A stretch of 64,000 bases of DNA from Lutibacter sp. (lineage in GTDB: Bacteria > Bacteroidota > Bacteroidia > Flavobacteriales > Flavobacteriaceae), in assembly GCF_013041805.1 (NCBI RefSeq), contig NZ_JABDRI010000094.1, positions 1 through 64,000 on the forward strand. The letters are read 5' to 3'. The translations under genes were made by a program, and so were the position numbers. Under the pieces are notes generated by a model that was not told the DNA's origin, did no database searches, and saw only the letters and a list, made by a program, of their open reading frames with translations. Shown one piece after another: positions 5,262 through 37,800 of the stretch (positions are counted from its first letter, which is position 1; each line of letters begins with the position of its first letter).

Positions 5262-6692
5262 TTATTCTTCTTTATCTTCAGTTAATTCCGAATGATCTTC
5301 CTTTTTAGGTTCAATAATGTCTTCACCTTTTAAATAATTAGGTAATTGCATACCTGCCATATTAAACATTTCTTGTAATGGAGGTACCGCTTTGTACATT
5401 CCAGAAATAAAGTTTGAGGTAGACGTTTTCCCATCTTTTCCGCCACCATTTTCCCAAACGGTAACTTTATCAATTTTAATATTTTTAATAGCTTCAGCTT
5501 GCGTTTTTACCAATTCAGGTAGCTTATCAGCAATTAATAGCAATGCTGCATTTTGAGCGTCGTCTCCAGAAGCTTTTACAATTGCATCTAAACCTTGCGC
5601 TTGTTTTGTTAATACTTCAAAAATACCTTTTGCTTCGGCTTCTTTTTTCATAAAAATTGCATCAGCTTCACCTTTTGCAATTCTCCTTATTTGTTCTGCT
5701 TCTGCTTCAGCATCAATTTCAATCTTACGCTTATCAATTTGGGCAGGAACAATTATATCAGCTCCTTGTTCAGCTTCTTTACGTTTTGCTCTAGCATCTT
5801 CTGCTATTTTTTCGGCGGCGTAAGCTTCTTCTAAAGCTTTTGCAGCTTGAACTTTTTCAGAGGCAATGGCAATTCTTTCCGCCTCAGCTTCTCGCGACCT
5901 TCTATCAGCATTTGAATTAGCAATTTGAACTTTAGCAGTGTTTTCTCCTTCAACAGCATTTGCATCTGCCGCAGCTACTTGAATACGTTGATCTTGTACT
6001 GCGTTTGCCGCACCAATAGATCCATCTCTATCTTTTTGAGCTACAGAAACTTTTGCTTCATTAATGGCTTTTGCAGCTGCCTCTTTACCTAAAGCCTGAA
6101 TATAACCTGATTCATCATGAATATCGGTGATATTTACGTTGATTAATTTTAAACCTACTTTTTTTAATTCGGCTTCCACACTATGTGTAATATGTGATAA
6201 AAATTGGTCTCTGTCGGAATTAATTTCTTCAATATCCATAGAAGCAACAACTAAACGTAATTGCCCAAAAATAATTTCTTGTGCTAATTCCTGAACCGCA
6301 TCTAAATTTAAACCTAACAAACGTTCAGCGGCATTTTGCATAACACTTGGCTCGGTTGAAATACCAATGGTAAATCTTGAAGGAACATTTACACGTATAT
6401 TTTGTTTACTTAAGGCATTTGTTAAATTGACCTCAATGGACATTGGTGTTAAATCTAGAAACTCATAATCTTGAATAATAGGCCAAATAAATGATGCCCC
6501 ACCATGAATACATTTTGCAGATTTTCCACCACCGGTTTTTCCATAAACAACTAAAATTCTATCAGAAGGACAACGCTTGTATCTTCTAATCATAGAAAAG
6601 AAGAATACAACAACAATAAAAATAACAGCTCCAATTAAATATACAGTGGTTGCTGCAGACTGCAGTGGTAATAATAATGACAATAAATTCAT
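5262..6692 (-). CDS. Flotillin / SPFH (band-7) domain protein, YqiK-like
   Basis: N-terminal TM segment, an SPFH domain, and a long Ala/Glu-rich coiled coil (EAEAERIAIASEKVQAAKALEEAYAAEKIAEDARAKRKEAE). Confidence 0.8.
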   Translation of the reverse strand: MNLLSLLLPLQSAATTVYLIGAVIFIVVVFFFSMIRRYKRCPSDRILVVYGKTGGGKSAKCIHGGASFIWPIIQDYEFLDLTPMSIEVNLTNALSKQNIRVNVPSRFTIGISTEPSVMQNAAERLLGLNLDAVQELAQEIIFGQLRLVVASMDIEEINSDRDQFLSHITHSVEAELKKVGLKLINVNITDIHDESGYIQALGKEAAAKAINEAKVSVAQKDRDGSIGAANAVQDQRIQVAAADANAVEGENTAKVQIANSNADRRSREAEAERIAIASEKVQAAKALEEAYAAEKIAEDARAKRKEAEQGADIIVPAQIDKRKIEIDAEAEAEQIRRIAKGEADAIFMKKEAEAKGIFEVLTKQAQGLDAIVKASGDDAQNAALLLIADKLPELVKTQAEAIKNIKIDKVTVWENGGGKDGKTSTSNFISGMYKAVPPLQEMFNMAGMQLPNYLKGEDIIEPKKEDHSELTEDKEE

Positions 6693-6699
6693 AGTTTTT

Positions 6700-7278
6700 T
6701 TATTTAGTTAATTTTTTTACAAGTAATATTTCAGCACTTACAATTTCTATCACTTGCACCATGCTGCCAGTTTCTAAATCTTCAGTTTCATCGGTTATAG
6801 CTTCTAATTCACGTAAGCTACCTTGCACTTTAATTTGTACTTTCCCCATTTTTGAACGGTTTGCACCAATTGGTAAATAAACTTCACCAATAACGCCAAC
6901 TGCATTTTTTATTTTTAAAGTTCCAGATTCGGCTAATTTATGCATCCAATAAAATAATGATGATGTTAAAACCATCATTAGTAAACCAGCTAGAGTAGAA
7001 ATTATAATTGTTGTAGAAGTTGATATCCCATTATCAATGCACGCAATTCCACTCCAACCAAAAATAGTAAAAAAGGCTACTATATTTTTAAAGGTAAAAA
7101 ATTGAAATCCAACGCCACCATCATCAGCTTCAAAATCTGAAGCGTCAGCTTCCATATCAGCATCTCCACCACCAATAAATGTTAACAAAAATATTACAAG
7201 AAAAACTGCAGAACCAACCAAGGCTATAATCCAATAGGTTTGTTCGAGGGATGACATTTCGGCAAAAAATTCCTTCAT
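6700..7278 (-). CDS. NfeD-like / YqiJ-like membrane protein, the usual flotillin operon partner
   Basis: Multi-TM N-terminal half and a C-terminal OB-like soluble domain. It lies 7 bp upstream of the flotillin gene on the same strand, the classic yqiJ-yqiK arrangement. Confidence 0.65.
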   Translation of the reverse strand: MKEFFAEMSSLEQTYWIIALVGSAVFLVIFLLTFIGGGDADMEADASDFEADDGGVGFQFFTFKNIVAFFTIFGWSGIACIDNGISTSTTIIISTLAGLLMMVLTSSLFYWMHKLAESGTLKIKNAVGVIGEVYLPIGANRSKMGKVQIKVQGSLRELEAITDETEDLETGSMVQVIEIVSAEILLVKKLTK

Positions 7279-7466
7279 AGGTTTTCAATTTTAGTTAATA
7301 TCGAATATACTATTATTCATTCAATTTAGGAAAAAAATAAGCGTTATTTTGAGCGATACTCTTAAAAGCGAGTTGATTTATATTTTATGAGTAGTTAAAT
7401 TGTGTAAAATGTTACGATGTTGCATAATATTTCGTTTAAATTTGCATTTTTAAATCAATAAAAATT

Positions 7467-7886
7467 ATGACAAATAAAATTGAAGTTAGTTGGAAAGGTG
7501 AAATGCTTTTTGAATCTGTGGCTCCTGAAGGAACCGTGATGATTGATGCTGATGAAGCAGTTGGCGGACAAGGAAAAGGATTACGTCCAAAGGCAATGAT
7601 GTTAACATCATTAGGAGGTTGTACCGCTATGGATGTTGCTTCATTATTAAAAAAAATGAGAGCTGAAGTTGATGATTTTAAAGTTGAAATTGAAGCTAAT
7701 TTAACAGATGAACACCCAAAATATTATGATAAAGTACACGTGATTTATCGTTTTTTTGGAAGCGATTTTAAAAAGGATAAAATTGAAAAATCGGTAAATC
7801 TTTCTGTTGAACGTTATTGTGGTGTTTTTGAAATGTTTCGCCAGTTTTCTAATATTTCTCATGAAATAGTTTACATGGAGCAATAA
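7467..7886 (+). CDS. OsmC/Ohr family peroxiredoxin-like protein
   Basis: OsmC-like core motif LTSLGGCTAMDVASLLKKMR with the conserved Cys; length 139 aa. Confidence 0.75.
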   Translation: MTNKIEVSWKGEMLFESVAPEGTVMIDADEAVGGQGKGLRPKAMMLTSLGGCTAMDVASLLKKMRAEVDDFKVEIEANLTDEHPKYYDKVHVIYRFFGSDFKKDKIEKSVNLSVERYCGVFEMFRQFSNISHEIVYMEQ

Positions 7887-7921
7887 AATAATTTGCTTAC
7901 TTTTGAGGAAAAAGCACTGCT

Positions 7922-9619
7922 ATGCGTTGGAAATTAAAACCAGAAACAAATCCTCAAATAACTATAAAATTAGCCAAGGAGTTAGGAGTTGAAAACACAA
8001 TTGCTAAATTACTAGTGCATCGTGGAATAGAAACTTATGAACAAGCCAAAGCTTTTTTTAGGCCAAATTTAACAGATTTGCACAATCCATATTTAATGAA
8101 AGATATGGATAAAGCGGTTGAACGAATCGAGAAAGGAATTTCTGAAGGTGAAAAGATTCTTGTTTACGGCGATTATGATGTTGATGGTACAACTTCAGTT
8201 TCACTACTTTCCTCATATTTAAAAACTTTTTATCCCAATATTGCGACCTATATTCCTGATAGATATAGTGAAGGGTATGGTATTTCTTTTCAAGGAATTG
8301 ACTTTGCTGAAGACAATGAAATTACATTAATTATAGCCCTAGATTGTGGTATAAAAGCCATTGATAAGGTAGCATATGCCAAAGAAAAGGGCATCGATTT
8401 TATTATTTGTGATCATCATAGACCTAGCGATACAATTCCGAATGCTGTTGCAGTTTTAGACCCAAAACGTTCAGATTGTGAATATCCGTACAAAGAATTG
8501 TGTGGTTGCGGCGTTGGCTTCAAATTGGTGCAAGCACTAGCAAGTAACCAAGAACAAACCATAGATGATTTGGTTCCCTATTTAGATTTGGTAGCTACGG
8601 CAATTGCAGCAGATATTGTTCCCATTACTGGTGAGAACAGAATTTTAGCATACTTTGGATTGCAAGTTATTAATCAAAATCCAAGAACTGGGATTAAAGC
8701 GATGATTGAGCAAGTTAAAAGAGATAAATTCACTATTACTGATGTTGTTTTTATAATTGCTCCTAGAATTAATGCTGCAGGAAGAATTAAACACGGAAAT
8801 TATGCAGTAGAATTACTAACTGAAATGGATTTTGACACTGCAGTAAAATTTGCTTTAGAAATTGAACAAAATAATATAGATAGAAAAACATTAGATAAAA
8901 CAATAACAAATGAAGCACTACAACAAATTATTGAAAATAATGAGGAACAAACATTTTCAACGGTTGTATATGCTGAAAATTGGCATAAAGGTGTTATCGG
9001 TATTGTGGCTTCTAGACTAATTGAAACGTATTATAAACCAACATTAGTTTTTACAAAAAGTGGAGATAAATTGGCCGCATCTGCGCGTTCAGTAAAAGGA
9101 TTTGATGTATACAATGCTTTAGAACAATGTTCTGAATTTATAGAGCAATTTGGTGGGCATAAATATGCTGCAGGCTTAACGTTAAAAGAAGAGAATTATC
9201 AAAATTTTAAATTGAAGTTTGAAGAAGTCGTAAGGAATACTTTACCTGAAGAATTAAGAACTCCAGAAATTTCTGTAGATGCTGAAATTAATTTAGAGGA
9301 AGTTACTCCTAAATTCTATAGAATATTAAAGCAATTAGAACCTTTTGGGCCTCAAAATATGAAGCCTGTATTTGTAGCTAGTGCTTTGCGAGATAACGGT
9401 TACGGTAAAAAGGTTGGAGCAGATGAGTCTCATTTAAAATTGAATATTTTTCAAGGTACCGATCAAAAAACATACAACGCTATTGGTTTTGGTTTAGGCG
9501 CAAAAGAAGAAGTTGTAAAAAAAGGCAACTTGTTTAAAGCTACCTTTTGTTTAGATGAAAATCATTGGAATGGAAATACTTCCATTCAATTATTGTTAAA
9601 AGATATTCAAGAGGAATAA
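7922..9619 (+). CDS. recJ: Single-stranded-DNA-specific exonuclease RecJ
   Basis: DHH motifs VYGDYDVDGTTS and ICDHHRP, a DHHA1 region and a C-terminal OB-like region; about 565 aa. Confidence 0.85.
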   Translation: MRWKLKPETNPQITIKLAKELGVENTIAKLLVHRGIETYEQAKAFFRPNLTDLHNPYLMKDMDKAVERIEKGISEGEKILVYGDYDVDGTTSVSLLSSYLKTFYPNIATYIPDRYSEGYGISFQGIDFAEDNEITLIIALDCGIKAIDKVAYAKEKGIDFIICDHHRPSDTIPNAVAVLDPKRSDCEYPYKELCGCGVGFKLVQALASNQEQTIDDLVPYLDLVATAIAADIVPITGENRILAYFGLQVINQNPRTGIKAMIEQVKRDKFTITDVVFIIAPRINAAGRIKHGNYAVELLTEMDFDTAVKFALEIEQNNIDRKTLDKTITNEALQQIIENNEEQTFSTVVYAENWHKGVIGIVASRLIETYYKPTLVFTKSGDKLAASARSVKGFDVYNALEQCSEFIEQFGGHKYAAGLTLKEENYQNFKLKFEEVVRNTLPEELRTPEISVDAEINLEEVTPKFYRILKQLEPFGPQNMKPVFVASALRDNGYGKKVGADESHLKLNIFQGTDQKTYNAIGFGLGAKEEVVKKGNLFKATFCLDENHWNGNTSIQLLLKDIQEE

Positions 9620-27072: not shown

Positions 27073-28491
27073 CTAATTCAAATAGTTATTAACTGCTGTA
27101 CTTCGACTTGAAGCATGTGATTTTAAAGTTGTAATTGCGGAGTAAAATGAACTACTGCTATTTAGAAATGTGAAACCTGAAACTTCTGTTGTTGCATAAG
27201 GCTCAACCAAAGCAGCATATGTGTCATAAACTCCTTGAATATAAGATGTTTCAAATGGGCCATCTATAGTAGCTTGTACATATTCATTGTATTTAGCTTT
27301 GTAAACGTCATCTTCATATAAATATTCAATTAATGGCCAATCTCCTGATAGATCTGAAAAATTTAAATTTAAAGAGCCACCCATTTTTCCATCTTGAAGT
27401 GCTTCATTATTATCCCAAGGGATCCACGTAAGTAAACTGTTGTCTGGATTATTGTATAAATAATAATTGTGTTCCATAACTCCATACGTATCCCAATTTT
27501 GAATAATTGTATTTACAGCCAAATAATTCAAGAAAACATCAGTATCAAAAACGGCATCTAAACCAGCTCTCCATGTTTCAGGGTCTGTTATTCTTGTATC
27601 ACTGTGTAAAGCTGTGAAAACGGATTCAATATCTGACCAATCTGCTTCGTCTTCATTTGTTTTCTTTTCAAAACCGTCTTCATTAAAAGTGCCTTCTGCA
27701 AAGCTTGACCCGTAATCTTCAGGCTTGTATAAATTACCATCATCACTTGAAAATTGTGTATCTAATACTGTTCCATCAACTTCTTCAACCAAAGTGTACA
27801 ATCCGAAATATTGAGGTCCATCACCATAATCAACATATAATGTGTAAAATGACGTATTTGAAACAGCCAATCCTGCATTTTGGAAAACTTCTGCAGCTAC
27901 TTTTTCTCTTAAAAATGAGCTGTCATCATAGTTGTTCTTTAAACTAAATTTTTTGAAACCATAAAAACGTTGGTTGTCAATTTGCGGATAATCATCTTCA
28001 AATTCATCAAAATCCATTTTAAATGAAAGTTTTAAAATACCTGATCCCCAAGCACTTGCCAAACTAGAGTTCCCTTTAAATCGTAAACCTACTTTATACC
28101 ATTCAATTCCTTTGTAAAAAACAGATGCAGGGACAAAAATAGGATCCTCATCATCAGAATTAAAAGAACCACTTGAACGTCCAAATGTTCCGTATAAGTC
28201 AGTCATATCGGCTAACATAGCTGCCCAATTGTTTTCTGATATTACAAAATCCAATCGTTTTACAGCTGTATCGTCAAATACTTCTGTGAAATTTGGGTCT
28301 GCATCTTTACTGTGAGTTTCAGTTGTCCAATCTGTAGCTACAAAATCTGAATCTATAACTTCTACATCTGTATCTGTATTTACAACTTCTGTTTCTGAAA
28401 TTGAATCATCATCTGAGCAGCTTATAAATAAGTAACCTACTAGAAAAAGCATACTTACAATTGTTGAGATTTTTAAAATTGATGTTTTCAT
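27073..28491 (-). CDS. CotH-family (atypical kinase) lipoprotein
   Basis: Lipobox LFISCSDD, and the CotH-like signature block EHNYYLYNNPDNSLLTWIPWDNNEAL. This call comes from motif memory and is not searched. Confidence 0.55.
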   Translation of the reverse strand: MKTSILKISTIVSMLFLVGYLFISCSDDDSISETEVVNTDTDVEVIDSDFVATDWTTETHSKDADPNFTEVFDDTAVKRLDFVISENNWAAMLADMTDLYGTFGRSSGSFNSDDEDPIFVPASVFYKGIEWYKVGLRFKGNSSLASAWGSGILKLSFKMDFDEFEDDYPQIDNQRFYGFKKFSLKNNYDDSSFLREKVAAEVFQNAGLAVSNTSFYTLYVDYGDGPQYFGLYTLVEEVDGTVLDTQFSSDDGNLYKPEDYGSSFAEGTFNEDGFEKKTNEDEADWSDIESVFTALHSDTRITDPETWRAGLDAVFDTDVFLNYLAVNTIIQNWDTYGVMEHNYYLYNNPDNSLLTWIPWDNNEALQDGKMGGSLNLNFSDLSGDWPLIEYLYEDDVYKAKYNEYVQATIDGPFETSYIQGVYDTYAALVEPYATTEVSGFTFLNSSSSFYSAITTLKSHASSRSTAVNNYLN

Positions 28492-28551
28492 TTTTTATTG
28501 TTTTTTTATTTGAGACGAAGCTCCATATTTTTGATAGTTTTTGAAATAAAA

Positions 28552-28590
28552 ATCAACGAATTAGTGATTTTTATCAACGAATAATGATTT
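28552..28590. promoter_or_regulatory. Tandem 21-bp direct repeat upstream of the CotH-like gene
   Basis: atcaacgaattagtgattt and atcaacgaataatgattt; the ATCAA cores at 28552 and 28573 are exactly 21 bp apart. The repeat lies 61-99 bp upstream of the ATG at 28491. Confidence 0.45.
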
Positions 28591-29296
28591 ATTTATTATG
28601 AATAGTATACGTATATTTTAAACCAATTATATTCGTTGTTTTTGGAATACTTTTGTTAAGCTCTTTTTCTATCCGATAAAACAAACTTATTTTACCTAAT
28701 TTTTTAAATTTGTAATCGGTTCCTAAAGTCAAACGATATTTATCAAATCCATTTTTTTCTCCTTCTTCAAAATGATTAAAAATTTCAGCAGAAAATTCAG
28801 GGTCTAATTTCCAATTTTTAAAGTTGTAGTCAATTGCAGTTTTAAAACGAATATGCTGATTGGCATAATCTCCTTCAGAATTACTTACTCCTAATTCATT
28901 TTTATTTTGATAACGAAACCTATATTTAAGTGTGAAATCGTTGATTTTATGTTTGTATGATGCATCTGCATTAAATCTAAAATGATTTTCGTATCCTTGA
29001 ATATTTCCTTCAGTATCATTTTCTTTAATATATCTTATTCCAGCCCCAAGTGTAAATTTTTTAGAAACTGAATATTCGGCATTAAGTTGTGTAAAATATT
29101 TATCTATTGTAGAAATATCTTCTTTTAAACGAAGCTGCTCTTCAATACCAAAATTCCACTTTTTATTTAATTTATATTCCAATGCAATGGTTGTCCAATT
29201 GGCCAAATCACTATTTTGAGAATATCCAAAATTTGTAATTATTACAATTAAAAGGATTGAAAGTAAAACTGTTGAATTATTTATTTTAGTTGCCAT
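28589..29296 (-). CDS. Small outer-membrane beta-barrel protein, DUF2490-like
   Basis: Signal peptide, then an alternating aromatic/hydrophilic beta-strand pattern; about 235 aa. It sits within the CotH/DUF4956/VTC neighbourhood. Confidence 0.45.
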   Translation of the reverse strand: MATKINNSTVLLSILLIVIITNFGYSQNSDLANWTTIALEYKLNKKWNFGIEEQLRLKEDISTIDKYFTQLNAEYSVSKKFTLGAGIRYIKENDTEGNIQGYENHFRFNADASYKHKINDFTLKYRFRYQNKNELGVSNSEGDYANQHIRFKTAIDYNFKNWKLDPEFSAEIFNHFEEGEKNGFDKYRLTLGTDYKFKKLGKISLFYRIEKELNKSIPKTTNIIGLKYTYTIHNK

Positions 29297-29322
29297 TTAT
29301 TGATGTGTTTTGGAGGTTAATT

Positions 29323-29925
29323 TTATTTTCCTTTGAAATAGAAAATGGTAACTTTAGCGATATCTCGTAAGAAATCTATATCACCAATTGTAATATTATT
29401 AATTTCTAAACCGGTTCTGTTTTCTAAATCACTTTTAAGTATTTCGTAATTTTCAGGCTTTATGTTTTCAATGTTTTCATAAACAATAGATTTTGATTCT
29501 TCTTGTTTTAAAGCCCAATACCTTTCAATAAGTACAAGAATGATAATGATAATTGTATTGGCTCCTAAAATTTCAGCATAACTCATTTTTTTATTGGCCA
29601 AAGAATTAATTACTGACACACCAATAACCACAAATAAATAGGTCATTTCTTTTATAGGAATAGCATCTGTTCGGTATCGAATAATTCCAAAAATGGCAAA
29701 TAATCCAAGAGCCATCCCAATATCTAGTTCATACTTTTTTAATGTAAAACATAGAAAAAATACAATAACGCTGATTAAATAATAAGTAAACACGTAATCT
29801 TTACGTTTAGAATATGGATAATAAACGAAACGTATTATAAAAGTTAAAAATATAAAATTGATAAAAAATCTAAAAATCATTTTTAAAAAATCATCGTCAA
29901 AAAGAGGTATGTCTAAAAATTCCAT
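29323..29925 (-). CDS. Polytopic membrane protein, DUF4956-like
   Basis: Four to five TM helices and about 200 aa. Its position between the VTC-like and CotH-like genes matches the neighbourhood I remember for this family. Confidence 0.45.
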   Translation of the reverse strand: MEFLDIPLFDDDFLKMIFRFFINFIFLTFIIRFVYYPYSKRKDYVFTYYLISVIVFFLCFTLKKYELDIGMALGLFAIFGIIRYRTDAIPIKEMTYLFVVIGVSVINSLANKKMSYAEILGANTIIIIILVLIERYWALKQEESKSIVYENIENIKPENYEILKSDLENRTGLEINNITIGDIDFLRDIAKVTIFYFKGK

Positions 29926-29936
29926 TTGTAAAGGTA

Positions 29937-30686
29937 TTAAGCTGTTAAATTATTAATTTTGATAAGTTTTCTTTTAAATCTATTGTATTTCAATTGTGGA
30001 TAAATATGTGTCATTCCAATACAATATTTACTAATACTATATGGGTTTATACATTTGTTTTTTAGTGCTTTTACAACAGGAGAAGCTCTATTAAAACGCT
30101 CTTGTTTTACTTCAATAATTACTAAATTTGAATAGTATTTTTCAGACTTGTTCATTTTGTAGAGAAGATTTAAATCTATTGTAAGTCTTTCTTTTACTTT
30201 AATATTTACTAAGGTTATTCTATTAAATTTATTCCAAATAATAGGTTTTAACTTCATTTTTTCTGAAGTGGTTTTTTCTATAAAATCTATTAAGCTTTTT
30301 GGTAAATTTGGTTCAAAGTCTTTAATTTGAATTCTGGATTTTGCGGTTTTTCCTTTACCGTCTTTTTGTTTAATTTCAAGAAAACAAATGTCAGATTCAA
30401 CGTACTTTCGCATTCTAACTTTTGTTCTGTTTATTTTTCCATTATGATGATCATTATAAAACTTTTTATCTTCCGTATCAAAGTATAGTGATGAATAAGT
30501 CATCATTCTATTTTCATTAATTTGAAGAACTTTGTATTGATCTTTAATAGTTTCTAAAACTTCAATTAATTTTTTTTCGTGAATTACAAATTTGGTATCT
30601 GTTCGTTTCATTAATGAAACACTATCCATTTCTTTTAAAGAAATAGATTCCAAATTATTTATAATATGTGATAGTTGTTCTTTCAT
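29937..30686 (-). CDS. VTC-domain (CYTH-like, polyphosphate-polymerase-like) protein
   Basis: N-terminal MKRTDTKF-type motif, then YFDTED, RTKVRMRKY and CFLEIKQKDGKG segments reminiscent of the VTC catalytic domain; about 250 aa. Confidence 0.5.
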   Translation of the reverse strand: MKEQLSHIINNLESISLKEMDSVSLMKRTDTKFVIHEKKLIEVLETIKDQYKVLQINENRMMTYSSLYFDTEDKKFYNDHHNGKINRTKVRMRKYVESDICFLEIKQKDGKGKTAKSRIQIKDFEPNLPKSLIDFIEKTTSEKMKLKPIIWNKFNRITLVNIKVKERLTIDLNLLYKMNKSEKYYSNLVIIEVKQERFNRASPVVKALKNKCINPYSISKYCIGMTHIYPQLKYNRFKRKLIKINNLTA

Positions 30687-30867: not shown

Positions 30868-31257
30868 TTAATTCTTTCTTTTTTTTTCTCTTTTTTTAGA
30901 ACTATTATTTTTTAAATATGTTGTATATAATTTTTTTTGATCATTTGTTAATAACGCTTTAATATCGTTTTCAAGTGAGTTTTTTAAAGCTTCCATTTCA
31001 TTTCTATCAGGTTTTCTAGAACTTGTTTTATCTTCCACTTCTTCAAAATGTTTAGTATATAATTCCAATACTTGAGTTTCCTGTTCATCTGATAATAATA
31101 GGTCGTCTGATAAATCACTAACCATTGTATTAATTTTTTTAGCTGTTGGTAATGCTGGAGGTCCGCTTTGTCCACCTCTTTGTTGTCCGCATGCAGATGT
31201 TGTAATTACCAATACCACTGCTAACGTTTTCCAAATCTTGTTTATTTTTAATTTCAT
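30868..31257 (-). CDS. Periplasmic lipoprotein with LTXXQ motifs (Spy/CpxP-like family)
   Basis: Lipobox TSAC, two LxxxQ helices (LSDEQETQVLELY and LTNDQKKLYTTYL), and a basic C-terminal tail. Confidence 0.45.
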   Translation of the reverse strand: MKLKINKIWKTLAVVLVITTSACGQQRGGQSGPPALPTAKKINTMVSDLSDDLLLSDEQETQVLELYTKHFEEVEDKTSSRKPDRNEMEALKNSLENDIKALLTNDQKKLYTTYLKNNSSKKREKKRKN

Positions 31258-31392: not shown

Positions 31393-33132
31393 TTATACAG
31401 GCCAACTATTAAAAGGTTGTTTTTCGAACTGCATCGTGCCATCTTCTCCTTTAAATATATTAATCCACGCTTTCCAGTTTTCATTGTCTAATTCGGGGTA
31501 ATCTAATCGATAGTGACTACATCTACTTTCTGTTCGCATGATAGAAGCTTTTAATTTCATTTCAGCCGTAGTAATCATATTTGCCGTTTCATGTGCTAAG
31601 CGGAGTTCATGCATATTAGCAGCTCGTAACATGGGTACATGATGATCTCTTAATTCTTCAATATAGGCCAAAGCGGCGTTTAATAAATTTCCTTTTTTTA
31701 TGTAAATGATAAAATTAGGAATCATAATGCTTTGTAAGGTTTGTGTTACCCAAGCCGGACTATAACCTGCTTCTCGTTTTAAAGGGGCTAATATTTCTTC
31801 TTGAATTTCATTTATTTTTGAAGATGAAATAGAAGATTTTTCAACTGTTTTGCTATAAATCGCAGCTGCTTCACCAGCAATTCCACCTTGTACTGCAGAA
31901 CCAGCTAACGATGAACCTATTTGTGTATAAATTGCTCCTGCCATATAAGATCCTAAAGCATCTCCTGCAGCATATAACCCTGGAATATTAGATTCACATT
32001 TATCATTTATAGGAACCAGGCCTTCAGCCTTGTGAATTGACATTCCTGCTGAAGAACCTCCAACTACACTACCTCCCATTCCTGGAGGACCTCCTTCACG
32101 GTCTTTTCTTGGAGGTCTTTTATTATCGTCTTCTTCTCCACCTGGTCGGCTACTAGCTTTATTAAATTCTTCAGGTTTGTAGGGTCCTCCTGCTATTACT
32201 GTATCCTGTTTTCCCATTCTTGGAGGTCCGATTTGCGCAGAACCACCAGTCATATAGGCGGTGTAATTCATATCAACGCCTAAATCATGACGAATTTCAA
32301 TACTAGTAGTTTCAGGTTTTTTCTCAAACATATCTCCCCAACCATTATAACATGCAGCGGCATTTTCAGATCTAGCTGGGTGACCATCATTCCATTCTTT
32401 ACCTGTAACTTTTGCACCAATATTGTAGGCCATTATGGTTCCATCATGTGTTAAGTCGCAAATAGGAAAACCATTAGGTTTAAACCCCCCTGCGCCAGTG
32501 CAAAGTATAACACTTTTAGCTTCATAAAAAATCACTTTTTCTTTGTCAATACTAAAACCCGCAGCCCCTACAATTTTGTTGTTTTCTTTTATTAAATGAG
32601 TAATTGCAATTCGTTCCTGTAGCGGAATATTGCGTTCATTTATGGGTTTACTAAAACTTTTGTTGTACAATGTAGAATCAAAAAACCCCCATTCTTTTAA
32701 TTCGTTAACCCGATCTAATGAATGTTCTGCCAATTGTTTAGTATAAACCGTATTATTGGTTCCTAATGCTGATCTAGAAACAGCTTCAGTAAATTCGTCA
32801 ATACTTAATTTTTCTTTTTTTGGATCGTAAGCAAAAATTCCTTTGGCAAAAGGCGTTTGACCCGAAGCACCCAATCTTCCTTTGGAAACCATTAATACTT
32901 TAGCACCGGCATCGTGCGCTTTTACAGCCGCAAAAAGTCCTGCCATTCCACCACCAATAACTAGTACATCGGTACTTATTTTATCACTTTCTAAACTATC
33001 TATATCTATTTCAGGTTCATTTAGCGCCCAGTCTAAAGGTACTCCCATAGCTGAAATAGCGGCAAAACTTGCAGCGCCTCCTGCTAAGGTTATAAATTTT
33101 CTTCTTGAGAGATTATTTGTTGATTTTTTCAT
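31393..33132 (-). CDS. Tat-exported FAD-dependent oxidoreductase of the fumarate-reductase / succinate-dehydrogenase flavoprotein superfamily, carrying an unusual Gly/Pro-rich insertion
   Basis: Twin-arginine signal SRRKFITLAGGAASFAAISAMG. Dinucleotide-binding motif VLVIGGGMAGLFAAVKAHDAGAKV. The C-terminal family motif RTESRCSHYRLDYPELDNENW. A low-complexity insert around residues 296-365 (positions about 32040..32250). Confidence 0.7.
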   Translation of the reverse strand: MKKSTNNLSRRKFITLAGGAASFAAISAMGVPLDWALNEPEIDIDSLESDKISTDVLVIGGGMAGLFAAVKAHDAGAKVLMVSKGRLGASGQTPFAKGIFAYDPKKEKLSIDEFTEAVSRSALGTNNTVYTKQLAEHSLDRVNELKEWGFFDSTLYNKSFSKPINERNIPLQERIAITHLIKENNKIVGAAGFSIDKEKVIFYEAKSVILCTGAGGFKPNGFPICDLTHDGTIMAYNIGAKVTGKEWNDGHPARSENAAACYNGWGDMFEKKPETTSIEIRHDLGVDMNYTAYMTGGSAQIGPPRMGKQDTVIAGGPYKPEEFNKASSRPGGEEDDNKRPPRKDREGGPPGMGGSVVGGSSAGMSIHKAEGLVPINDKCESNIPGLYAAGDALGSYMAGAIYTQIGSSLAGSAVQGGIAGEAAAIYSKTVEKSSISSSKINEIQEEILAPLKREAGYSPAWVTQTLQSIMIPNFIIYIKKGNLLNAALAYIEELRDHHVPMLRAANMHELRLAHETANMITTAEMKLKASIMRTESRCSHYRLDYPELDNENWKAWINIFKGEDGTMQFEKQPFNSWPV

Positions 33133-33769
33133 TTTTTGAAGTTTTAAAAAAATAGGTTTTTAGCAAATAGAAAATACCACTAACAACTATTAATAAATAG
33201 TAAATTGAGAAAGAGGTATTGCTATGTCGCCCTATATTAATCACATGCCAAGTGGCTGTTACTATAAAAAGTAGTGTAAAATAACCATGTAAACTTCTCC
33301 AGATTCTGTAACTTAAATTCAATTTGAACCTACAGAAAGAAGTAATTATTAAAATGACCATGCTAGTATATGCAATTAACCCTAAAATTACACCTGCGCT
33401 ACTAAAGGTTGTTATCAACCTATAAAAAGCATCAGTAGGTGTAACTGTATTATCGAAAAACTTTGGAACTATGATAAAGAAAGGATGCAATAACAATATT
33501 GAAATAAATACATATCCAACTATTTTATGAATTTTAAGCACATTTACCATTCGAATATCTTTTACTAATTTTCTATTCATTCTAGTTGAAAAGAATTGTG
33601 AAACGAGCAAAGTAAATCCTACAATAGTAGTAATTGATAAGATTTCCTTAAGTGAATTTCTTCTAGGAAATTCTGATATATAATAAAGCAATATAGGTAC
33701 AATTATAAAAAGGATTGTGAGTATTATAAGTCGGAATATGTGTCGTTTCTTTTTCATAATTAGCCCCAT
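33113..33769 (-). CDS. Di-haem ferric-reductase-like transmembrane protein (MsrQ/YedZ-type b-type cytochrome)
   Basis: Six predicted TM helices and two His pairs with the bis-haem spacing: HKIVGYVFISILLLH (H-x14-H) and HGYFTLLFIVTATWH (H-x13-H). It overlaps both neighbouring genes by a few codons. Confidence 0.55.
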   Translation of the reverse strand: MGLIMKKKRHIFRLIILTILFIIVPILLYYISEFPRRNSLKEILSITTIVGFTLLVSQFFSTRMNRKLVKDIRMVNVLKIHKIVGYVFISILLLHPFFIIVPKFFDNTVTPTDAFYRLITTFSSAGVILGLIAYTSMVILIITSFCRFKLNLSYRIWRSLHGYFTLLFIVTATWHVINIGRHSNTSFSIYYLLIVVSGIFYLLKTYFFKTSKNEKINK

Positions 33770-33975
33770 GAAACGATTACTGGAATGGATTTTTCTGGTG
33801 TGATTGTTATCGCATCAACTGGACAATACATTCTGCATAAATGACAGATTTGACAATCTTCAGGAAATAAAATTTCAGCTTTTTTTGAATCAGGATTCAA
33901 CCTGATTACATCAGTAGGGCAGCTTTTAATACACTCTTCGCACCCTATACAACCGTTAATACTTTTAATTGCCAT
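33760..33975 (-). CDS. Cytoplasmic 2[4Fe-4S] dicluster ferredoxin
   Basis: Two CxxCxxCxxxCP motifs, CIGCEECIKSCP and CQICHLCRMYCP; 71 aa and no signal peptide. Confidence 0.8.
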   Translation of the reverse strand: MAIKSINGCIGCEECIKSCPTDVIRLNPDSKKAEILFPEDCQICHLCRMYCPVDAITITPEKSIPVIVSWG

Positions 33976-35338: not shown

Positions 35339-36187
35339 TTAAAACCCGTAATTAACACCTAAGCCAAAAACTTCTCTTGTTTGAAATCCTTCAAACGCAT
35401 TATCATCATAAATTGTTTGAAAACTAAGGTTAGCAGACAAGTACTTGTTTACTGCCATTACAATATTCATAGTGTAATCTAAATCTACATTTTGTGGGTC
35501 TTCTAAGTAGTTTGAATATAAATTTAAGATATTTTCCATACTTACATTTGGCATCAAATTAAATTTAGCATAAGCGCCAATTGCTGCTCCAAATTCAAAA
35601 CGTGTACTTTTTCCTTCTTCAACACCAAAATAAGCATCGTTAGGTAAGGTTAAATTTTTGTCTACAATTACTAATTTTGCAGTTGCAGGAGCAAAGTTAA
35701 TTTTTAAGTTATCAGACTTTTTCCATAACATACCTGGTCCAAACTGCAAATAACCTGGAGATAAAAATTTAGTAGGCCCATCTGTATCACTATCTAAGTC
35801 ATCAGCAAATTGAGTTTTGAAATTTAAAAAAGCAGAATAAAACCAATTACCTGAAGCTTTTTTCCCTATTAAAGAGTTCCATTCAATTCTATCATCAGAT
35901 TTCTGAACATCTTCTCCTTTAATTTTAGTCAGTCCAAATGCTAATATTAATTTATTATCCCAATTTAAATCACCTTTTTTATAGTTAAAATCGTAGTTTA
36001 AACCAACAGTACCAGTTACGTTACTTTGCCCACCAGCAATCCAATTATTAAAAGCAGATTGATTTACTAGGAATGAGATGTTTCCTGATTTTACCCATCC
36101 ATCTTTTGGTCCCTCTTCGTTATCTTGCGCAAAAGACAGCGTACAAGATAATATTGCAATAAGTAATAAAGTAATTTTTTTCATCAT
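35339..36187 (-). CDS. Outer-membrane beta-barrel protein, DUF3078-like, paralog 1
   Basis: Signal peptide, motif GWVKSGNISFLVNQSAFNNW, and C-terminal ...GLGVNYGF. Confidence 0.5.
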   Translation of the reverse strand: MMKKITLLLIAILSCTLSFAQDNEEGPKDGWVKSGNISFLVNQSAFNNWIAGGQSNVTGTVGLNYDFNYKKGDLNWDNKLILAFGLTKIKGEDVQKSDDRIEWNSLIGKKASGNWFYSAFLNFKTQFADDLDSDTDGPTKFLSPGYLQFGPGMLWKKSDNLKINFAPATAKLVIVDKNLTLPNDAYFGVEEGKSTRFEFGAAIGAYAKFNLMPNVSMENILNLYSNYLEDPQNVDLDYTMNIVMAVNKYLSANLSFQTIYDDNAFEGFQTREVFGLGVNYGF

Positions 36188-36332
36188 GTTTTGTTTTTAA
36201 AATAAGTTTGCAAAAGTATATTAATTAATATTAATAACGTTTAAAAATGTTATTAATTTTCAATTACTAAAATACTGATTTATAAATAAGTAAAAAAATT
36301 ATTTTAGAGTGAATTGAAAATTATTTCAAAAG

Positions 36333-37208
36333 TTAAAAATCATATTTAACCCCAAAGCCAAAAACCTCTCTAAGTTGGAATCCCTCAAAAGCATTATCAT
36401 CATAAATGGTTTGAAAAATAAAATTTGTAGTAAAATATTTATTAATTTTCATAAATATAGTTAGGGTGTAATCTAAATCTAAGTTTTGAGGATCTTCTAA
36501 GTAGTTAGAGTATAAAGCAATTATATTTTCTGCCGAAATATTTTCCATTAACTCAACTTTTAAATATCCAGTAGCGCTAAAGCCAAGTTCGAGCCTGGTG
36601 CTTTTACCTTCTTCTACACCAAAGTATTCACCATTAGGTAAAGTAAAATTTTTATCTACAATTATTAGTTTAGTCGTTGCGGGAGCAATATTAAATTTAA
36701 AATCTTCACTTTTCTCCCAAAGCATCCCAGGACCTAATAAGAAAGTAGCTGGAGAGAAAAAGTTAGTATGTTCTCTTCTATCTTCTATTCCTTGATCCGT
36801 TTTAAAATATTTAAACCCTTTAGTAAATTGTGTTTTAAAATTGAAGAGGACAGAATAGTACCAGTAATTGTCGGCATTAATACCTAAAAGGGAATTTAGT
36901 TCAAATCGGTCATCTGTTTTCTTCTCAAATTCATTATTTTTACTTTTGGTTAAACCATATGAACTAATAATATTATTTTTCCAAGTAGTATTTCCTTTTC
37001 TAAAATTAAATTTATAATTTAAACTAACATTTCCAGCAATTGTATTATCACCACCAGCAACCCAATTATTAAAAGCAGATTGATTAAAAATAAATGAAAT
37101 ATTCCCACTTTTTACCCATCCTTGTTTAACTATTTTTTTTTCTTGTGAAAAAAAAGTAGCGTAGTTCAGTAGAATAATAATAAGTAGTAATAATTCTTTC
37201 GTTTTCAT
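36333..37208 (-). CDS. Outer-membrane beta-barrel protein, DUF3078-like, paralog 2
   Basis: About 50% identical to 35339..36187 (GWVKSGNISFIFNQSAFNNW ... GFGVKYDF). Confidence 0.5.
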   Translation of the reverse strand: MKTKELLLLIIILLNYATFFSQEKKIVKQGWVKSGNISFIFNQSAFNNWVAGGDNTIAGNVSLNYKFNFRKGNTTWKNNIISSYGLTKSKNNEFEKKTDDRFELNSLLGINADNYWYYSVLFNFKTQFTKGFKYFKTDQGIEDRREHTNFFSPATFLLGPGMLWEKSEDFKFNIAPATTKLIIVDKNFTLPNGEYFGVEEGKSTRLELGFSATGYLKVELMENISAENIIALYSNYLEDPQNLDLDYTLTIFMKINKYFTTNFIFQTIYDDNAFEGFQLREVFGFGVKYDF

Positions 37209-37281: not shown

Positions 37282-37800
37282 TTATTTTTTAAATAAGGGT
37301 ACTGTAGAGCATGCTTCACCAAACATGATTGATTTGGCAACGGGTTGTAATTTTTCAATCAACTGAATATAAGCTGTTTCAGGAATAGGTTTACTTGAAC
37401 AGCCTTTAATAATTACAGGTTTATTGGTATATGTTTCAAGAGGAAAAGACTGAATAATGTCATAAAAAATAGAAGTTTCTAGGTCTTTTAAATTCCCAAC
37501 AACTATTTTTTTTGCGAATGGAGTTAAATAGGTTGTAATAAGCATATATGCCCACGATGGAATTATAGCATCACTACTACAAGTAAGCGCTACAAAACTA
37601 TTTTCATATTGAGTCCAATCATGATTTTTTAAATGTTCCCGAAACGCTATTTCCTTTAAAATGAATTCTTCAAACAACCAGTTTTTAATGTCAAGGATAG
37701 TTCTTTTCCCTTGTGGATAAAACTCTTCAAGATCAATTGTTTGCAACTTGCTTTTAGCAACTCTATTTATAATTTCATCAGGCATTTTAAAGAAATCCAA
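37282..37800 (-). CDS. Hypothetical protein, possibly DUF2480-like, conserved downstream of sufE/DUF59
   Basis: No recognisable catalytic motif. It overlaps the DUF59 gene by 14 bp, which suggests co-transcription. Confidence 0.35.
   Translation of the reverse strand: MDFFKMPDEIINRVAKSKLQTIDLEEFYPQGKRTILDIKNWLFEEFILKEIAFREHLKNHDWTQYENSFVALTCSSDAIIPSWAYMLITTYLTPFAKKIVVGNLKDLETSIFYDIIQSFPLETYTNKPVIIKGCSSKPIPETAYIQLIEKLQPVAKSIMFGEACSTVPLFKK

Follow-up and report, generated by a model that had tools for sequence, protein, structure and literature searches.

A cassette of three genes on the minus strand of Lutibacter sp. contig NZ_JABDRI010000094.1, inside the 64,000-nt stretch analyzed here (the window), raises the question of how electrons would reach an exported flavoenzyme, and on which side of the membrane its companion ferredoxin works. 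The genes encode a 2x[4Fe-4S] ferredoxin, a membrane protein with a ferric reductase domain (FRD) and a flavoprotein with a twin-arginine translocation (Tat) signal. An earlier note on this DNA had read them as a conduit leading from a cytoplasmic ferredoxin, through membrane haems, to an uncharacterised periplasmic flavoenzyme. A trans-membrane conduit to such an enzyme is still the most likely arrangement, supported by the FRD, the Tat signal and the co-conservation of the genes. The cytoplasmic ferredoxin donor is contradicted by three observations set out below. In our judgement the cassette probably encodes a periplasmic two-subunit flavo-iron-sulfur reductase, powered through the di-haem FRD protein.

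Genes were called from a listing of open reading frames (ORFs) covering 28–38 kb of the window, and all three members of the set claimed by the earlier note were found there (Table 1). To collect homologous loci, we ran a pattern scan over GTDB with one genome for each species, then called ORFs and applied phmmer. A metagenome scan yielded further relatives of the flavoprotein, both with and without a Tat signal (Tat-plus and Tat-less), including locus L159.

The three proteins of the cassette

The flavoprotein matched PF00890 (76.1 bits, cut-off 20.4) and PF02910 (50.6 bits, cut-off 20.8). In its Tat motif, LSRRKFITLAGG, conservation across 24 homologues is 90% or higher at S9, R10, R11 and F13; the run S-R-R-K-F-I-T continues into the hydrophobic LAGGAASFAAISAMG, and export is predicted from this. 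A GxGxxG FAD motif spans G60 to G65, and within the C-terminal hallmark R533, E535, R537, H540, R542 and P546 were invariant in a diverse alignment (A2). The earlier note had named the signal, the FAD motif and the hallmark, and all are present; the Pfam matches, together with AlphaFold2 and Foldseek, place the protein in the SdhA/FrdA/AprA superfamily. The AlphaFold2 model, based on an alignment of 97 diverse sequences, had a predicted local distance difference test score (pLDDT) of 87.7 and a predicted template modeling score of 0.88, as compared with a pLDDT of 48 from 24 near-identical homologues. Its best PDB match in Foldseek was the alpha subunit of 3'-phosphoadenosine 5'-phosphosulfate (PAPS) reductase (PAPSR; 8a8o, E 1.5e-29, TM-score 0.72), followed by FrdA/SdhA and AprA, with TM-scores of 0.67–0.72 across PAPSR, FrdA, SdhA and AprA.

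No characterised equivalog family took in the flavoprotein, in keeping with its description as uncharacterised in the earlier note. Every NCBIfam score was far below cut-off, and the nearest models (PRK08275, TfrA, AprA and SdhA) fell three- to ten-fold short of their curated cut-offs. The top score was 159 bits against a cut-off of 587 (fumarate reductase/succinate dehydrogenase models, 587–1196), and the MFR SdhA model gave 52 bits against 1100. For adenosine 5'-phosphosulfate (APS) reductase, TIGR02061 (aprA) scored 73.3 against 641.75 and TIGR02060 (aprB) 26.7 against 135.65, both well outside the family. An identical flavoprotein has already been recorded in a Lutibacter sp. metagenome-assembled genome (MAG), and homologues of 70–90% identity in Flavobacteriaceae carry only the annotation "FAD-binding protein".

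Active-site equivalences were read from a HMMER alignment to mycobacterial SdhA (7d6v_A). H251 and H367 align with two conserved active-site His of the superfamily. The His that binds FAD covalently in SdhA aligns with Gln92, and the substrate-binding Arg of HGxNRLG with Gln404, so that these two positions and the model scores separate the protein from the fumarate reductase/succinate dehydrogenase families. The diverse alignment showed no invariant Arg in the capping region. None of the three cassette proteins had a Pfam match to FMN_bind and the loci held no extra co-conserved gene, which distinguishes the system from the ApbE-flavinylated reductases.

The flavoprotein also carries a Gly/Pro/charged low-complexity segment, which the earlier note had put at about 70 residues. 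The insertion is real, but by pLDDT (below 50) it is about 50 residues long. It differs in length and sequence among Flavobacteriaceae, is present in every Tat-plus member and belongs to the exported clade only; at this position Tat-less relatives have an ordered ...NAEG...E.HAGRGP..., which we take to be the NxxGERF...E..GRG motifs of SdhA/FrdA. In the model, the capping domain of the exported clade appears remodelled by the disordered insertion. Because of this remodeling, Gln92, Gln404 and the lack of an invariant capping Arg, the enzyme is unlikely to be a fumarate or an APS/PAPS reductase.

The membrane protein belongs to the FRD superfamily, with a match to PF01794 (Ferric_reduct) of 47.4 bits against a cut-off of 28. 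It has six transmembrane helices (TM), with His pairs in TM3 and TM5, in agreement with hydropathy, and the positive-inside rule gives an N-in/C-in topology. Over 13 FRD sequences H81, H95, H161, H175, H182, P96, P102 and G130 were invariant. The family match, the topology and the four invariant ligand His bear out the prediction of an MsrQ/NOX-type di-haem protein. The earlier note was correct in finding two His pairs at bis-haem spacing, but not in giving them as H-x14-H and H-x13-H: both are H-x13-H (H81/H95 and H161/H175). H81 and H161 would hold the inner haem, and H95 and H175 the outer one. NCBIfam MsrQ models did not match the protein at E up to 0.1. It stops after TM6 (218 aa), without the dehydrogenase domain of NOX proteins. 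In five other loci (L010, L020, L016, L022 and L017) the FRD protein is about 455–466 aa long and carries C-terminal FAD_binding_8 and NAD_binding_1 domains, a NOX-like architecture predicted to draw on NAD(P)H.

The third protein matched the Fer4 families of Pfam (E 6e-11), with Fer4, Fer4_7 and Fer4_21 all above their cut-offs, and its two CxxCxxCxxxCP motifs are those of a 2x[4Fe-4S] ferredoxin. The cluster residues C9, C12, C15, C19-P20 and C41, C44, C47, C51-P52 were invariant in an alignment of the window protein with 26 homologues (A7, 27 sequences). As the earlier note had stated, it lacks a signal peptide, because the first cluster Cys is already at residue 9 and leaves no space for one. 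The C-terminal tail, PEKSIPVIVSWG, is conserved. At Tat-plus loci with a short FRD and at those with a NOX-type FRD, the ferredoxins end in ...SWG; those of Tat-less partners also carry this unusual tail, and its penultimate Trp is kept in nearly all members of both groups. The second-cluster signature CQICHLC(R)xYCP is common to all Tat-associated ferredoxins in A7, at short-FRD and NOX-type loci alike, and the ferredoxins of Tat-less flavoproteins are variable at the CQICHLC positions. Most Tat-plus-linked ferredoxins have two residues fewer ahead of the first Cys. The ferredoxin is the best-conserved protein of the cassette (70–93% identity across phyla), followed by the flavoprotein (58–77%) and the FRD protein (32–61%).

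Distribution of the cassette and partners of the flavoprotein

The trio was found at 15 independent loci, spread over six or more phyla or classes, and its grouping is therefore not due to chance. These loci come from Bacteroidota, Alpha- and Gammaproteobacteria, Campylobacterota, Desulfobacterota and Dehalococcoidia. Two further contigs (L007 and L012) end too soon for either a ferredoxin or an FRD partner to be visible, and stand outside the 15. Close flavoprotein orthologues (58–77% identity) were found in Flavobacteriaceae, Bacteroidales, Octadecabacter, Sulfurimonas, Desulfosediminicola, Shewanella ulleungensis and Marinomonas vulgaris, and in alphaproteobacterial, deltaproteobacterial, gammaproteobacterial and Lentisphaeria MAGs. 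More distant Tat-bearing relatives (34–38%) occur in Alteromonadales, Congregibacter and Dehalococcoidaceae. All-against-all clustering of neighboring ORFs confirmed the co-conservation of the three genes and showed that ferredoxin, FRD protein and flavoprotein are all that the loci share. Their neighbors include response regulators, a SpoU methylase, a PDEase, an EF-hand protein and AhpC, among which we found no consistent fourth gene or functional hint. As only the trio is shared and all other neighbors differ, the cassette appears from these comparisons to be a self-contained unit that has spread horizontally across phyla. No molybdoenzyme gene lies in or beside the cassette in the window or at any of the 15 loci, which distinguishes it from MsrPQ.

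The presence of the FRD gene follows that of the Tat signal. Among Tat-plus flavoproteins with sufficient flanking DNA it lies beside the flavoprotein gene in 14/14 cases (L159 included), and beside the Tat-less relatives in 0 of about 14. These relatives, from Chloroflexota, Actinomycetota, Bathyarchaeia and metagenomes, have a ferredoxin of the same family adjacent and no FRD gene. Ferredoxin and flavoprotein were thus paired at all 15 Tat-plus loci and at about 14 Tat-less ones. Because the ferredoxin stays when the signal and the FRD gene are both missing, the ferredoxin belongs with the flavoprotein, and the FRD with export.

In L017 (1606..7647, Dehalococcoidaceae) one contig holds two divergently arranged paralogous flavoprotein-ferredoxin pairs. 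One is accompanied by a NOX-type FRD and has a Tat signal with a lipobox-like FWGC; its paralogue has neither a Tat signal nor an FRD of its own. L016 (69..9092, Alteromonadales MAG) and L022 (4522..13483, Congregibacter brevis) have the cassette together with an IclR regulator, a TonB-dependent receptor and an S1 sulfatase. Their gene orders differ, and they form a paralogous gammaproteobacterial group with a NOX-type FRD. The sulfatase neighborhood may hint at a sulfated substrate, a hint that may not hold for the Lutibacter subgroup. Nine homologues (P0158, P0174, P0182, P0185, P0186, P0189, P0194, P0202 and P0206; about 650–720 aa, 31–40% identity) have a Tat signal, a lipobox (e.g. LLGCSP), a long Ser/Ala-rich linker and a conserved C-terminal extension (...EWKGDLS.PY..RYP.RFPGE.EALG). 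By our reading, their N-termini resemble those of Gram-positive (Coriobacteriia-type) Tat lipoproteins. The metagenome scan, which was seeded with these Tat-lipoprotein homologues, returned no close relatives of the subgroup. An apparent fusion of ferredoxin and flavoprotein in L051 was rejected as an out-of-frame read-through into a downstream GltD-like gene. In this actinomycete MAG (5947..9464) the gene after that of a Tat-less flavoprotein homologue encodes a larger protein, which begins with CxxCxxCxxxCP and is otherwise GltD/NAD(P)H-oxidoreductase-like; it may be an alternative electron-input partner.

The path of electrons and the place of the ferredoxin

In the reading that we favor, the flavoprotein, with FAD bound non-covalently, would fold and bind the ferredoxin in the cytoplasm as an alpha-beta unit like that of AprAB or PAPS reductase. 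Both would then cross the membrane via Tat on the twin-arginine signal of the flavoprotein, the ferredoxin hitch-hiking. The FRD protein would accept electrons at its cytoplasmic face; by analogy with MsrQ, it would draw in Lutibacter on menaquinol or on a flavin reductase encoded elsewhere, and in the NOX-type cassettes on NAD(P)H, through the fused FAD/NAD(P)H domain. From there, we infer, electrons would pass along the stacked pair of haems b, reach the ferredoxin in the periplasm and continue to FAD, for the two-electron reduction of a periplasmic substrate.

Three parts of this scheme have precedents. The FAD of the alpha2beta2 enzymes PAPSR and AprAB is fed by their beta subunit, a small 2x[4Fe-4S] ferredoxin-like protein seated on the flavoprotein (PMC10322725), and the PAPSR beta chain is collinear with our ferredoxin profile. 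In the MFR of Wolinella and Campylobacter a signal-less Fe-S subunit was shown experimentally to be co-exported via Tat with an SdhA-like flavoprotein with non-covalent FAD (PMC2680327). An FRD protein feeding a periplasmic reductase is known from MsrPQ (PMC5676040, PMC12525009). On comparison of the sequences and by analogy with these enzymes, we think it fairly likely that the ferredoxin is a co-exported enzyme subunit.

Several points weigh against this scheme. Many generic ferredoxins match the cassette ferredoxin as well as, or better than, the PAPSR beta subunit does; at 71 aa it lacks the long C-terminal tail of AprB, and its Gln42 aligns with what we take to be the position of the electron-relay Trp of AprB. 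A natural fusion of ferredoxin and flavoprotein was absent among 270 homologues and all locus ORFs. The cassette encodes no donor to the short FRD. All short-FRD loci have the order ferredoxin-FRD-flavoprotein, so that the ferredoxin gene is not adjacent to that of the flavoprotein, an order that fits a ferredoxin-FRD pair.

This gene order, with the possible overlap of the ferredoxin and FRD genes, is also an argument for the model of the earlier note, in which a cytoplasmic ferredoxin donates to the inner haem of the FRD and the haems hand over directly to the periplasmic FAD. That the ferredoxin has no signal peptide and the short FRD no built-in donor domain would suit it too, as would the example of MsrQ, which passes electrons straight to its periplasmic enzyme with no intermediary. 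It is hard to reconcile, however, with the five NOX-type cassettes: all keep the ferredoxin, with copies in L010 and L020 that are 71–76% identical to that of Lutibacter, and a cytoplasmic ferredoxin donor would be redundant there because the FRD brings an FAD/NAD(P)H domain with it. The dehydrogenase domain of NOX-type proteins sits at the cytoplasmic face beneath the inner haem, and fills it; the long and short forms would have no docking site in common on this side. Both kinds of locus offer the ferredoxin the same two partners, the flavoprotein and the FRD surface that faces the periplasm. The Tat-less relatives, moreover, pair the same ferredoxin family with the flavoprotein where no FRD is present, and the structurally closest enzymes all feed FAD from a bound Fe-S subunit. 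We therefore regard a cytoplasmic donor as unlikely.

Electrons might also run the other way, from a periplasmic flavoprotein-ferredoxin dehydrogenase via the haems to the quinone pool. SdhA-family enzymes can operate in both directions, an obligate donor domain is missing from the short FRD, and quinones are known to interact with MsrQ-type proteins (PMC12525009). An outward, reductive direction is nevertheless the most likely, because the NOX-type fusions make NAD(P)H the donor, with flow back to NAD(P)+ thermodynamically unfavorable for most substrates, and because characterised FRD-family proteins all carry electrons outward (PMC3591440, PMC5676040); reverse flow seems very improbable to us. 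Hardly more credible, and if anything less so, is a periplasmic version of a known enzyme, an Mfr-like fumarate reductase or an APS/PAPS reductase on an unusual membrane anchor. The top NCBIfam and PDB matches are indeed fumarate reductase/succinate dehydrogenase flavoproteins, TfrA, AprA and PAPSR, and the two active-site His, H251 and H367, are in place. The equivalog scores and the active-site and capping-domain differences given above all speak against it, however, and APS and PAPS are cytoplasmic metabolites.

Genomic setting and relation to known systems

The earlier note had also described overlaps of a few codons between the genes. This is so for the FRD and flavoprotein genes, which share 20 nt; between the ferredoxin and FRD genes it depends on the start codon, as the first ATG gives an overlap of 10 nt and an alternative ATG lies 2 nt past the ferredoxin stop. 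The genes are tightly packed either way. Scans for sigma-70 promoters and terminators did no better than on shuffled sequence, and neither Rfam nor tRNA scans of the window gave a hit. Of the 42 window ORFs of at least 150 aa (mean GC content 0.303, sd 0.029), the flavoprotein gene is the richest in GC (0.375), reaching 0.46 in the low-complexity part. The neighboring FRD gene (0.272) is ordinary. Recent transfer was considered as a cause, but a Gly/Ala/Pro-rich composition is the more probable reason.

Directly downstream of the flavoprotein gene is a gene for a small lipoprotein of 129 aa. Its Pfam matches were below threshold only (LTXXQ/Spy-like), and its mature N-terminus is Gly/Gln/Pro-rich (...GGQSGPPALP...). 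Homologues adjoin the cassette in two Bacteroidales loci (L003, 3734..4108; L005, 4187..4597) and in no locus of other phyla; L001 has an unrelated small EF-hand lipoprotein at the same position. The lipoprotein may be an accessory member of the system. The block that follows the cassette downstream in the window has no tie to it in other genomes.

Table 1. Positions in the window of the cassette genes, of features within the flavoprotein and of neighboring genes
Feature	Position	Strand	Description
Ferredoxin gene	33760..33975	-	71 aa; Pfam Fer4 families
FRD membrane protein gene	33113..33769	-	218 aa; PF01794
Flavoprotein gene	31393..33132	-	579 aa; PF00890 + PF02910
Twin-arginine signal peptide of the flavoprotein, residues 1-30, MKKSTNNLSRRKFITLAGGAASFAAISAMG	33043..33132	-	SRRxF at least 90% conserved
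Gly/Pro/charged low-complexity segment, residues 303-352	32077..32226	-	pLDDT below 50; in capping-domain region
Superfamily hallmark RTESRCSHYRLDYPE, residues 533-547	31492..31536	-	RxESRxxHxRxD(Y/F)P motif
Small lipoprotein gene, candidate accessory gene	30868..31257	-	129 aa; directly downstream of flavoprotein
Downstream block of four genes	27073..30686	-	CotH kinase-like, DUF2490 (porin-like), DUF4956 and VTC-domain (polyphosphate-polymerase-like); directly downstream of cassette
Tandem DUF3078 paralogues	35339..37208	-	282 and 291 aa
DUF2480 gene	37282..37800		follows the DUF3078 pair

The earlier note knew of no characterised system with this arrangement. For the combination this stands, as full-text searches found no description of these genes together, but each half has a close analogue, in MsrPQ and in MfrABE (PMC2680327). 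MsrPQ (YedYZ in E. coli) likewise has a short six-helix FRD protein (about 210–220 aa) with two His pairs, encoded beside a Tat-exported periplasmic reductase, with outward flow from a donor outside the operon (quinol or a soluble flavin reductase). It differs in that its partner MsrP is a molybdoenzyme, in place of the FAD flavoprotein and 2x[4Fe-4S] ferredoxin found here, and in that some of our cassettes join an NAD(P)H/FAD domain to the FRD. A Tat-signal flavoprotein of the SdhA superfamily is also combined with a signal-less Fe-S subunit in MfrABE (SdhABE), the enzyme of Wolinella succinogenes and Campylobacter jejuni. Its FAD is non-covalent, and experiments established its periplasmic orientation (PMC2680327). 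It differs in that the Fe-S subunit is of the SdhB type with three clusters, the anchor SdhE is haem-less and Cys-rich, and the substrate is fumarate.

The closest solved fold is that of AprAB and of the Methanothermococcus thermolithotrophicus PAPSR (8a8o). In them, as proposed for the cassette, an FAD subunit is combined with a small 2x[4Fe-4S] ferredoxin-like subunit from an adjacent gene, and the FAD is non-covalent; like the cassette flavoprotein, they lack the fumarate-reductase NRLG Arg. They differ in being cytoplasmic and in having neither a Tat signal nor an FRD partner, and identity is only about 19–20%; our ferredoxin has neither the C-terminal extension nor the relay Trp of AprB, and the capping domain is remodelled. 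A nucleotide sulfate is an unlikely periplasmic substrate. Going by family models and conserved residues, the cassette is a member of none of MsrPQ, Mfr and AprAB/PAPSR.

Bacterial NOX proteins such as SpNOX, with an FRD and an FNR-like dehydrogenase domain, share their architecture with the membrane component of the five NOX-type loci. They differ from the FRD of the window, which is short and MsrQ-like, and in place of O2 we propose a dedicated redox enzyme of the periplasm as acceptor. For bacterial NOX, non-O2 periplasmic acceptors were raised only as a possibility by Hajjar et al. (2017; PMC5676040). Two soluble flavocytochrome reductases, the Shewanella fumarate reductase Fcc3 and the urocanate reductase UrdA, are periplasmic FAD_binding_2 reductases, as is proposed for the cassette enzyme. 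They reduce organic acceptors, and the likeness is confined to the N-terminal FAD domain. They receive electrons via fused c-type haem or ApbE-flavinylated FMN domains, with no ferredoxin subunit or FRD conduit. A survey of extracytosolic electron transfer covered MsrQ-like clusters only when linked to ApbE flavinylation (PMC8238504).

As a source of a candidate partner for bacterial FRD/NOX proteins, this set of three genes is concrete, widespread and easy to clone, and it would couple the same periplasmic enzyme to either a short MsrQ-like or a full NOX-like FRD. Besides MsrQ-MsrP, we know of no dedicated periplasmic acceptor enzyme established for these proteins. If our reading is true, the flavoprotein-ferredoxin unit would be the first dedicated physiological partner enzyme of bacterial NOX-like proteins other than MsrP, and a second likely case of Tat hitch-hiking in the SdhA superfamily, after Mfr. 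Enzymes of the AprAB/PAPSR type, so far known only as cytoplasmic, would then reach the periplasm. More tentatively, and with rather less than even confidence, we suggest a previously unrecognised class of extracytoplasmic reductase, in which a NOX/MsrQ-type conduit serves a Tat-co-exported ferredoxin-flavoprotein heterodimer. The disordered Gly/Pro-rich loop of its shortened capping domain might give substrates of a new kind access to the active site, e.g. oxidised or sulfated macromolecules of the envelope or the environment, in a repair or scavenging role like that of MsrPQ. That the cassette has reached unrelated phyla of marine and sediment bacteria points to a function of general use, which might be detoxification, repair or the supply of an accessory electron acceptor.

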